From an uncultured bacterium (lineage in GTDB: Bacteria; Eisenbacteria; RBG-16-71-46): a stretch of 64,000 nt of DNA. Position numbers and translations under genes: made by a program. Under the pieces are notes generated by a model. It searched no databases. It saw only the letters and a list, made by a program, of their open reading frames with translations, and was not told the DNA's origin. Positions 11,486 to 13,595 of the stretch are shown here, one piece after another. Numbering within the stretch: position 1 is the stretch's first letter; the number at the start of each line of letters is the position of its first letter. The stretch is taken from the NCBI GenBank assembly GCA_964434945.1, contig CAYSWZ010000007.1, positions 12,593 through 76,592 of the forward strand, in the 5' to 3' direction.

Positions 11486-13595
11486 CTACCCGCGGCCGCG
11501 CGCGGGCACGGTGAGGATCGGGCAGGCGACCAGGTGCCGCACGCTCGACACGGTGGCGCCGAACACGGCATCGGACAGGCTCTTGTGCCCGTGCGAACCG
11601 GTGACCAGAAGGTCGGCGCGCTCCTGTCCCACGATGCGCGCGATCTCGGGCGCCGGCTCGCCGTGCCCGGGGCGGGAGCCGGTGCGGATCCCGCGCAGGC
11701 CGAACTCACGCGCGAGTGACTCGAGCGCCTGCAGATCCTCGCGGCTCTCGCTGTCGAGGCTCTGCTCGCCGAGCCAGCGGCTCGCGGCGCTCTCGGCCAC
11801 GTGCACGAACACCAGCTCGACCTCGGGCGTCAGCTGTGCATGCCGCAGGAACTGGAGCACGGTGTCGTCCGTGTCGGCGAGTTCCACGGCGATCGCGATG
11901 CGTCGATAGCTGCCCGAGCTCCAGCGTCGCGGCTCCGCCAAGGCGGCCAGGCCCGCGCCCCTCGCGCCCCGAGATCCCGCCGCCGCGAGCGCCGGTCCGG
12001 GCGAGGCCGGCACGAGCCGCGGCCACCCGCGGGCGAGGAGCGGAGCGAGCACGAGGTAGACGAGCAGGTTGTCCACCCCGCGTTCGCCCTGCCACAGGAT
12101 GACCGCCGCGGCCGGGATGATGGCGAGCCCCCGACTCACGAGCCGCCTGAGCCAGGGTCGCACGCGCACGCGCAGGAATCCTTCCATGACGATCTGCCCC
12201 GCGAGCGTGCCGGTGACGGTGCTGTCCTGGCCCGCGCACAGGAGCGCCACCGCGAACAGCGTCGGGGCGAGACGGGTTCCGAGCAGCGGGGAGAGCAGGC
12301 GATGCGCTTCCTTCAGGCTGCCGACGTCGGTGAAGCCATGGCGATGGAACGTCGCCGCCGCAAGGACCAGGATCGCGAGGTTCACGAACATCGCGGCGTT
12401 GAGCGCCACCGCCGAATCCACCAGGTTCATCCGGCAGGCGTCCTTCCGACCGGCGGGCGTAGCCTCGATGTTCCGGCTCTGGACCAGGGCGCTGTGCAGG
12501 TAGAGATTGTGCGGCATGACCGTCGCGCCGAGGATGTCCATCGCCACGTACAGCGATTCGCCGCGGAGCCCGAGCACGGCCGGCTGCCCGCCCGGCGAGC
12601 TCCCGAACAGCGTCGGCACGCCGTCCCGGGCCGCGCGGCACGAGGTTCGCGACGATGGCCGGCAGATCGGGATGCGAGAGCAGCATCTGCACCGCGAAGC
12701 ATCCGCCGATCGTAACGACGAGCGTGAGGATGAACGCCTCGAGCCGGCGGATGCCGAAGTTCGAGAGCGCGAGCAGGGACAGCACGTCGAGCGCGGTGAT
12801 GGAGACGCCCGCGAGGAGCGGAAGGCCGAACAGGAGCTGGAGTCCGATCGCCGCCCCGATGACCTCGGCCACGTCGCAGGCGACGATCGCGAGCTCTCAC
12901 AGGATCCACAATGGCCACACGAGCACGCGCGGATAGAAGTCGCGACAGGCCTGCACGAGGTCGCGGCCGGTCACGACACCGAGGCGGGCGGACAGCGTCT
13001 GGAACAGCACCGCCATGAGGCTGCTCATGACCAGCACCCAGACGAGCTGGTAGCCGAACCGGGAGCCGCCCGCGAGGTCGGTCGCCCAGTTGCCCGGATC
13101 CATGTAGCCCACGCTCACGAGATAGGCCGGGCCGGCGAACGCGAGCATGAGCTGGAGCCAGTGGCGCGCGAGCCGGCCGCGGCTGTCCGGAATCGGATGC
13201 CCGTGCGGGTCCTCCTTCGGGTGGCTCATGTAGCGGTCGAGCGCGTCGAGCACACGGTCGCTGACGTGGTGCTCGAGTTCCTCGGCGTCCTCGTCCACGT
13301 CGCTCCAGTCGAGCTCGAGCACGTTGACGAGGAACGCCTCGAGGATCCGATGCCGCCGCAGCACGAGCAGCGCCGCGCGCTCGCCGTCCGGCGTCGGGCT
13401 CGCGACGCCGCGCGCGCCGAGCGTGACGAGCCGCTCCTCGGCGAGGCGCGCCAGCATGTTCGTGACGCTCGGCGCCGACACATGCAGGTGACGGGCCAGC
13501 GCCGACACGGGCACGGGCGAGCCGGCGCCGAGTTGGAGCAGCGCCTTCAGGTAGTTCTGCCGCGATCGACTCGCGGGGACTGCGGTCGAGTGCAT
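11486..13595 (-). pseudogene. mntH: DtxR/MntR-type regulator domain fused to an Nramp (MntH) Mn2+/Fe2+ transporter and a C-terminal UspA domain; interrupted by an in-frame TGA (12897-12899) and a 1-nt frameshift (~12600-12625)
   Basis: Three collinear ORFs on the minus strand:
- 12897..13595 encodes a DtxR wHTH and metal-binding domain ([37 protein letters not shown]) that runs straight into Nramp TM1 ([20 protein letters not shown]).
- 11706..12872 is in the same frame immediately after the TGA (AEVIGAAIGLQLLFG...).
- 11486..12619 is in a different frame and carries ...[21 protein letters not shown]..., the remaining TM segments, then a UspA fold (...ADLLVTGSHGHKSL...). Confidence 0.6.

Follow-up and report, generated by a model that had tools for sequence, protein, structure and literature searches.

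Introduction

Fusion of a manganese transporter to a Usp domain has a described precedent, as the MntH proteins of the "MCaU" class comprise 12 transmembrane segments (TMS; individual segments are numbered TM1 to TM12 below) and a C-terminal USP domain (PMC9606685). On the regulatory side, the DtxR-family protein DR2539 of Deinococcus radiodurans is reported to repress mntH (PMC3327659). Here, we analyze a locus that carries sequences of both kinds on the minus strand (positions 11486 to 13595) of a 64,000-nucleotide (nt) stretch of contig CAYSWZ010000007.1 from an uncultured bacterium; this whole stretch is referred to as the window. An earlier note, made from the sequence alone, had described the locus as a DtxR-type regulator fused in frame to an Nramp/MntH transporter and a Usp domain. 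It had proposed either a decaying pseudogene of a one-component Mn-sensing transporter or an intact novel gene with two sequencing errors, with an undescribed architecture in both cases. In our analysis, the locus is very probably a pseudogenised two-gene mntR-mntH(Usp) manganese-uptake operon and not the gene of a three-domain protein. The tri-domain architecture does not exist as a biological entity: the remnants of a regulator and of a transporter are joined in frame by accident.

In architecture, the transporter half corresponds to the MCaU proteins. Its intact orthologues (P0001-P0120; 640-680 amino acids, aa) share with them the arrangement of Nramp, one extra TM and Usp. The TM1-9 and Usp parts of the window copy are 79-90% identical to the intact Nramp-Usp orthologues, and the window copy, which is without the N-terminal ~21 residues and TM10-12 and carries a stop codon and a frameshift, is a dead member of the group. 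The architecture is thus not new in either of the proposed senses, since its Nramp-Usp half is that of the described MCaU class (PMC9606685) and the join to DtxR stems from a private deletion of 317 bp.

The regulator half belongs with the three-domain DtxR-family Mn(II) regulators. The orthologous 228-aa regulator consists of a winged helix-turn-helix (wHTH), a dimerisation/metal-binding domain and a FeoA/SH3-like domain. Its best match among solved structures is 5zr4, a "Metal-dependent transcriptional regulator" (E=6.5e-31), and ScaR (3hrs) and SloR (5cvi) are also matched; relatives are annotated by JGI as "DtxR family Mn-dependent transcriptional regulator". At the positions that we take to be His98 and Cys102 in DtxR numbering, the orthologous regulator has Asp and Glu. 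Its gene lies directly upstream of mntH, a placement that would be expected of a repressor of manganese uptake. The window copy differs in that it has lost the third domain, and what is left of it continues into transporter sequence. In extent, the surviving 144 residues correspond to the two-domain MntR of the Bacillus subtilis type (~142 aa; 1on1). However, sequence similarity to this group is weak (E ~6e-9, compared to 6.5e-31 for the three-domain group), and its truncation is a recent accident under relaxed constraint rather than a native family architecture.

Bacterial pseudogenes commonly form by microhomology-mediated deletion and by slippage in homopolymers. The locus resembles other deletion-made gene fusions in decaying loci in its short junction repeats, its multiple lesions and its accelerated amino acid change. 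Its set of lesions is polymorphic between near-identical strains, and the sole curiosity is a secondary 5-bp slip that restored a common frame.

Domain content of the locus

Read on the minus strand from 13595 to 11486, the open reading frame (ORF) list and the three-frame translation give the N-terminal domains of a DtxR-family protein, Nramp and Usp in this order. They lie in one conceptual frame, which is broken by a TGA and a +1 frameshift and is 317 bp plus 264 bp short compared to orthologues. A first ORF of 232 aa (13595..12897) encodes the DtxR-type wHTH and the dimerisation/metal-binding domain, continues into Nramp TM1 with no intervening stop and terminates at the TGA; this DtxR+Nramp ORF is recorded as P0121 in a public protein collection. 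Past the TGA, the Nramp sequence stays in the same frame to ~12627. A second ORF of 377 aa (12619..11486) contains the MPHNLYLHS motif, the remaining Nramp body and the C-terminal Usp domain, with its stop codon at 11488-11486. The earlier description of three domains readable in order, interrupted by a TGA, is therefore accurate at every position that it gave.

Profile hidden Markov model (HMM) searches, which the earlier note had called for, were run on a repaired translation of 703 aa, in which the TGA is read as X and one base is removed. All domains scored above their cut-offs, and the DtxR fold was recognised: Fe_dep_repress (PF01325) with 32 bits against a cut-off of 26 (residues 10-58), Fe_dep_repr_C (PF02742) with 98.8 bits against 27 over its full length (1-70/70), Nramp (PF01566) with 374 bits, above the curated cut-off, and Usp (PF00582) with 67 bits, likewise above the curated cut-off (residues 564-698). 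The NCBIfam MntH profile (NF001923) matched with 473 bits against a cut-off of 430, over profile positions 27-378 of 439, and this early end of the match gave the first hint of further missing sequence. Both signature motifs of Nramp, DPGN and MPHNLYLHS, are visible in the translation.

Two losses had escaped the earlier note: that of the FeoA/SH3-like domain and that of 88 Nramp codons at ~12059-12067. The DtxR remnant is 93% identical to residues 1-138 of the 228-aa regulator encoded on the syntenic contig L004 (see below), and the C-terminal domain, which occupies residues ~146-228 in orthologues, is deleted at the point where the frame enters Nramp TM1. The Nramp remnant is 86-90% identical to P0001-P0003 and the Usp domain 79-82% identical to the Usp region of orthologues, with only the tail of TM12 left ahead of it. 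The TGA, the +1 frameshift, the 88-codon loss and the replacement of the N-terminal ~21 residues leave no complete 11-12 TM Nramp core on one uninterrupted ORF.

Syntenic orthologues and the ancestral operon

A search of protein collections with the repaired translation retrieved hundreds of relatives of ~640-680 aa, up to 90% identical and all annotated as Nramp plus Usp, and no DtxR domain was found in any of them. Their first ~21 residues (e.g., VNAPETRSLAEVHRTVEVPHS-RHWLRRMLAFAGP) are replaced in the window copy by 145 residues of DtxR sequence. Compared to these proteins, the frame change of the window copy falls within VPRGP-DGxPxLFG, at the boundary between the two motifs, and 88 residues are missing between DNLLV and YLV. 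One orthologue, P0004 (ENA, 639 aa), has a gap of its own in the TM10-TM11 region, where ~29 residues (FTSD...AAII) that should separate "PLIT" from "GLNAK" are missing; this in-frame deletion affects the same part of the transporter as the loss of 264 bp in the window.

Synteny with the window is seen in the contigs that encode P0003 and P0002 (L001-L004), whose orthologues have 86-90% aa identity to the window copy. They have in common the E1alpha, E2, ABM and E1beta genes of a 2-oxoacid dehydrogenase, located upstream and divergent, and a 160-aa gene and an abhydrolase gene downstream. In all four contigs, a separate 228-aa DtxR-family gene (PF01325, PF02742 and, at residues 149-221, the FeoA/SH3-like PF04023) overlaps a 666-668-aa Nramp-Usp gene by 4 nt (GTGA). 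Because these genes are separate and overlap by 4 nt, the ancestral state, as read from the orthologous sequences, is an ordinary two-gene regulator-transporter operon and not a one-component protein. Of the earlier proposal of a decaying one-component transporter, the pseudogene survives, whereas its ancestor was split into two genes.

The downstream neighborhood varies among the syntenic contigs. In three ENA contigs (L001 8016-9629, L002 7382-8995, L003 2392-4005), the Nramp-Usp gene and the 160-aa gene are separated by a 537-aa gene without a Pfam match, which is absent from that position in L004, L085 (a contig introduced below) and the window. The 160-aa gene, also without a Pfam match, overlaps the abhydrolase gene by 4 nt (window 10891, 11370; L004 6588-6591) and, at 97.5% identity to its L004 counterpart, is among the most conserved genes of the neighborhood.

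Deletions, frameshift and nonsense codon

Nucleotide alignment (blastn) of the window to L004 and L001 yields three collinear blocks that are displaced by 317 and 264 bp and include one single-base gap (Table 1). The 317-bp deletion takes out the SH3/FeoA domain of the regulator, the gene boundary and ~21 Nramp codons, and leaves regulator codon ~145 and Nramp codon ~22 adjacent, in one frame. The two genes were originally two frame positions apart, and since 317 equals 3x105+2, they share the same frame after the deletion. The 264-bp deletion corresponds to residues 391-478 of P0001 and removes three hydrophobic segments, namely TM10, TM11 and most of TM12, the extra segment that in orthologues returns the Usp domain to the cytoplasm. 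Short repeats of 6-9 bp are present at the two deletion junctions.

The 1-nt shift, which the earlier note had put near 12600-12625, is indeed present, and the comparison places it precisely at 12626, in the CCCGGG run 12630-12625: the window reads GGC CCG G GAC where L004 reads GGG CCG GAC. At the position of the TGA, Cys is encoded in P0001-P0004, P0065 and P0102 (WILCELAIVACD), with the codon TGC in L004, L001 and L085.

Table 1. Features of the remnant locus, in window coordinates
Feature	Position	Strand	Basis and remarks
Whole remnant of the mntR(dtxR-family)-mntH(Nramp-Usp) operon	11486..13595	-	ORFs, three-frame translation, HMM matches, blastn against L004/L001
Conserved 41-nt block (GATTAGTCTGGACAAATCGCCAAGTTAGTCGTACCTAATGAC) upstream of the regulator gene	13622..13662	-	Near-identical in L004 and L001; flanks diverge
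DtxR-family Mn-regulator remnant, codons 1-144 (wHTH and dimerisation/metal-binding)	13164..13595	-	PF01325, PF02742
Junction of the 317-bp deletion, at microhomology CGCGCC, between 13163 and 13162	13157..13168	-	Three-way comparison of left and right orthologous sequence
Nramp/MntH remnant, residues ~22-390 of the orthologous 668-aa protein (TM1-TM9)	12059..13162	-	PF01566, NF001923; holds the nonsense codon and the frameshift
TGA nonsense codon, in WIL-stop-ELAIVACD	12897..12899	-	Cys (TGC) in all orthologues and the sister contig
CCCGGG run with one extra base, assigned to 12626, giving the +1 frameshift	12625..12630	-	Comparison with L004 and L085
Junction of the 264-bp (88-codon) in-frame deletion, at microhomology CTGCTCGT(C/G)	12059..12067	-	blastn and junction comparison
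C-terminal Usp domain of the former Nramp-Usp protein	11504..11908	-	PF00582

A second allele in an independent contig

Searching with the 232-aa ORF also retrieved a 161-aa protein from a JGI metagenome (P0122), which is identical over 144 residues and then diverges. The contig encoding it (L085, 7318 bp) is 99.6% identical to window positions 15652..8347 over 7311 bp, with 24 mismatches and one 5-base gap. Half of the mismatches (12/24) cluster in the last ~80 nt of the contig (window 8355-8433, L085 7225-7303), which may reflect noise at the end of the contig, or else a boundary of recombination or between strains.

The large deletion at the first junction, the frameshift and the 264-bp deletion are common to L085 and the window; the sequence of the frameshift region is identical, and the two do not differ around the 264-bp deletion. 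At the first junction, L085 reads CTCGCGCGCCGCGCC followed by ACTGG and the window reads CTCGCGCGCC followed by ACTGG, the five extra bases of L085 being a second GCGCC unit. Owing to these bases, the regulator remnant and the transporter remnant lie in different frames and the ORF stops after 161 aa; the tail after residue 144 comprises 17 out-of-frame residues, compared to Nramp TM1-3 in the window ORF. At 12897, L085 has TGC and not TGA. Inside the locus, all four substitutions that separate the two alleles change the encoded amino acid (R to L, C to stop, L to V and G to S), and L085 keeps the orthologue state in each; the three apart from the TGA, at 13150, 12872 and 11581, have R, L and G in L085 and intact orthologues and L, V and S in the window. 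The two alleles do not differ in the DtxR remnant.

Since both deletions and the frameshift are common to L085, they are real and older than the split of the two strains. By the same comparison of alleles, the in-frame fusion and the TGA are late events, private to the window allele, in a locus that was already dead, because L085 is out of frame and has TGC. Exact-match searches were uninformative: the 30-nt sequence of the first junction had no match in genome and metagenome contig collections, and that of the second junction had none among metagenome contigs; L085, which bears the second junction, was not retrieved either and is evidently absent from these collections.

The second allele also bears on two alternatives that would place the lesions in the data. 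In the first, the locus is an intact novel tri-domain gene, and the TGA and the frameshift are sequencing errors. In its favor, the repaired translation exceeds the HMM cut-offs for each of the three domains, and the frameshift sits in a short run (CCCGGG) that resembles a homopolymer. However, the independently assembled JGI contig reproduces, base for base, the frameshift and both deletions, and its regulator and transporter are out of frame. Repair of both "errors" still leaves a transporter without TM10-12 and its own N-terminus. The flanking genes are error-free, amino acid change in the locus is accelerated (see below), and the orthologues are always split. This second half of the earlier proposal consequently retains only a negligible probability. 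In the other alternative, the deletions and the fusion are mis-joins of metagenome assembly. The source does appear metagenome-derived, with P0121 encoded on a 107-kb NCBI contig, and its relatives are all metagenome-assembled genomes (MAGs) or metagenomes; yet repeats of 6-9 bp at the junctions are not long enough to make a k-mer assembly collapse, both deletions recur in an assembly made independently from other data, and synteny is perfectly collinear on both sides. We regard such mis-joins as exceedingly unlikely.

The nonsense codon invites a further reading, as a recoded selenocysteine codon in place of the conserved Cys. The TGA stands exactly where every orthologue has Cys, and exchange of Cys and selenocysteine is the classic pattern of selenoproteins. 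Against recoding, the near-identical sister contig has TGC, the RNA downstream of the TGA is no more structured than shuffled sequences (z=-1.18), no tRNA gene was found in the window, and the gene is broken in any case by the frameshift and two deletions. The probability of a selenocysteine codon is therefore practically nil.

Relaxed constraint on both remnants

Within the neighborhood, the decay is limited to the locus. The E1alpha, E2, ABM, E1beta, 160-aa and abhydrolase genes each give single full-length alignments to their L001/L004 counterparts without frame changes, and the CrcB gene is an open ORF of normal length. In a relative-rate test with L001 as outgroup, we compared amino acid changes unique to the window lineage with those unique to L004. 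The DtxR remnant has 8 window changes and none in L004 (p=0.008), and the Nramp-Usp remnant has 47 compared to 12 (p=5e-6), whereas the counts in five flanking genes (32 and 23) do not differ significantly. Over the whole operon, 55 unique changes in the window stand against 12 in L004, and locus and flanks differ (Fisher test, p=0.005). The excess in both remnants, and not in the flanks, indicates that the former operon is under relaxed constraint over its whole extent, the regulator remnant included. Consistently, the ratio of non-synonymous substitution rates (dN) between the window and L004 branches is 3-8 in the remnants and about one in the flanks, in a run with one mis-repaired codon. 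Neither these unique changes nor the four amino-acid-changing differences among four between the window and L085 give a sign of purifying selection on a fused product. We infer that the transporter and the truncated regulator are both non-functional and that the locus is drifting neutrally.

Several points weigh against a pseudogenised operon. In the same run, with its one mis-repaired codon, the ratio of non-synonymous to synonymous rates (dN/dS) on the window branch is ~0.2 in the remnants and not 1, which suggests either that inactivation came recently compared to the split from L004 or that some constraint persists. The 232-aa ORF keeps its start codon and the conserved upstream block, and a truncated product may be expressed. 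Evidence from an independent allele consists of one assembled contig, L085. Finally, our view is that of the window, and a replacement manganese importer or regulator elsewhere in the genome would lie outside it.

The conserved upstream block and a possible residual regulator

The 41-nt block upstream of the regulator gene contains TTAGTCTGGACAAA and an inverted repeat, and includes the "box" at 13626-13644 to which the earlier note had drawn attention. Judged by its conservation, it is probably the promoter/operator of the former operon. The inverted repeat reads TTAGT-N4-ACTAA in orthologues and TTAGT-N4-CCTAA in the window and L085. No further copy of the box was found in the window, where it occurs once, and none in shuffled sequences; a scan of positions 11300-14000 for consensus sigma-70 promoters and terminators returned no sites.

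This block is one of the features that would fit a surviving regulator. The transporter would be dead, and the N-terminal product (the 232-aa ORF in the window, 161 aa in the sister strain) would still bind DNA in response to Mn, in the manner of two-domain MntR-type repressors, which naturally lack the SH3 domain; in the window, it would consist of DtxR domains 1 and 2 tethered to Nramp TM1-3. The wHTH and the dimerisation/metal-binding domain are complete and score above their cut-offs, solved two-domain relatives of 139-157 aa exist (8pvt, 2isy and 1on1), the ATG and the upstream block are kept, and L085 has the same DtxR remnant as the window. On the other hand, the 8 lineage-specific changes in the remnant, compared to 0 on the orthologue branch (p=0.008), indicate relaxed constraint, and the wholly different C-terminal tails of the two alleles mean that no particular product is conserved. 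One half-site of the putative operator is mutated (ACTAA to CCTAA), the sole local target gene is destroyed, and the window holds no second copy of the box. We therefore consider a residual regulator very unlikely. Still more doubtful is a co-option, in which the 232-aa product would be expressed as a membrane-tethered Mn-responsive regulator, or the 144-aa core would serve as a two-domain MntR-like repressor of other genes; if true, the locus would be a natural snapshot of a new regulator born from the decay of an operon.

Adjacent DtxR and Nramp genes in other genomes

The earlier note had accepted that orthologues which are always split would refute a fused protein. A DtxR-family gene lies directly upstream of an Nramp gene on the same strand in 26 of 85 loci, namely L085, the syntenic L001-L004 and 21 of the 80 loci (L005-L084) taken from species-representative genomes. 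In every one of these other than L085 (25/25), the DtxR frame reaches a stop 71-295 nt ahead of the conserved Nramp core. Thus, neither the four syntenic loci nor the 25 adjacent-gene loci as a whole contain a one-ORF orthologue, L085 is out of frame, and the orthologues are always split. Among the 120 best protein matches to the 232-aa ORF, the only one combining the DtxR N-terminal domain with Nramp is the window's own ORF, P0121.

One further protein with both kinds of sequence was considered. P0177 (ENA, 261 aa) consists of Nramp residues 1-~125 followed by DtxR residues ~94-228, with LAEVLG joined to LDWAEV. It was rejected as a natural fusion, as its domain order is the reverse and it looks like a tandem-duplication junction, a rearrangement or an assembly chimera. 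The adjacent order of DtxR and mntH genes is itself widespread, occurring in about a quarter of the sampled loci, in Eisenbacteria, Gemmatimonadota, Bacteroidota, one Patescibacteria MAG and others.

Discussion

The comparison with intact relatives and with the second allele suggests a succession of events for the pseudogenised operon. The ancestor carried the gene of a 228-aa DtxR-family Mn-responsive repressor, its stop overlapping by 4 nt the start of a gene for a 666-668-aa, 12-TM Nramp/MntH-Usp protein. A microhomology-mediated deletion removed the third domain of the repressor, the gene boundary and the first ~21 transporter codons, a second one, of 264 bp, removed TM10-12, and a one-base insertion in the CCCGGG run shifted the frame. 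Later, and in the window allele only, the first junction lost one of its two tandem GCGCC units, which extended the deletion from 312 to 317 bp and brought the remnants in frame by chance. The same allele also gained the change from TGC to TGA and three replacements at conserved amino acid positions.

The locus opens no new mechanism and has no bearing on long-standing questions. It does carry a caution: a deletion across the overlapping genes of a dying operon can leave raw sequence that reads as a striking multi-domain architecture, and annotation pipelines record such accidental ORFs, as P0121 exemplifies. Between them, the two near-identical alleles show pseudogene decay at successive stages. 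For the organism, whose closest named relatives are Candidatus Eisenbacteria MAGs, the locus means that the lineage has lost its MntR-MntH(Usp) manganese-uptake module. This loss suggests that another importer encoded elsewhere in the genome makes the module redundant, or that manganese import is dispensable or harmful in the habitat.

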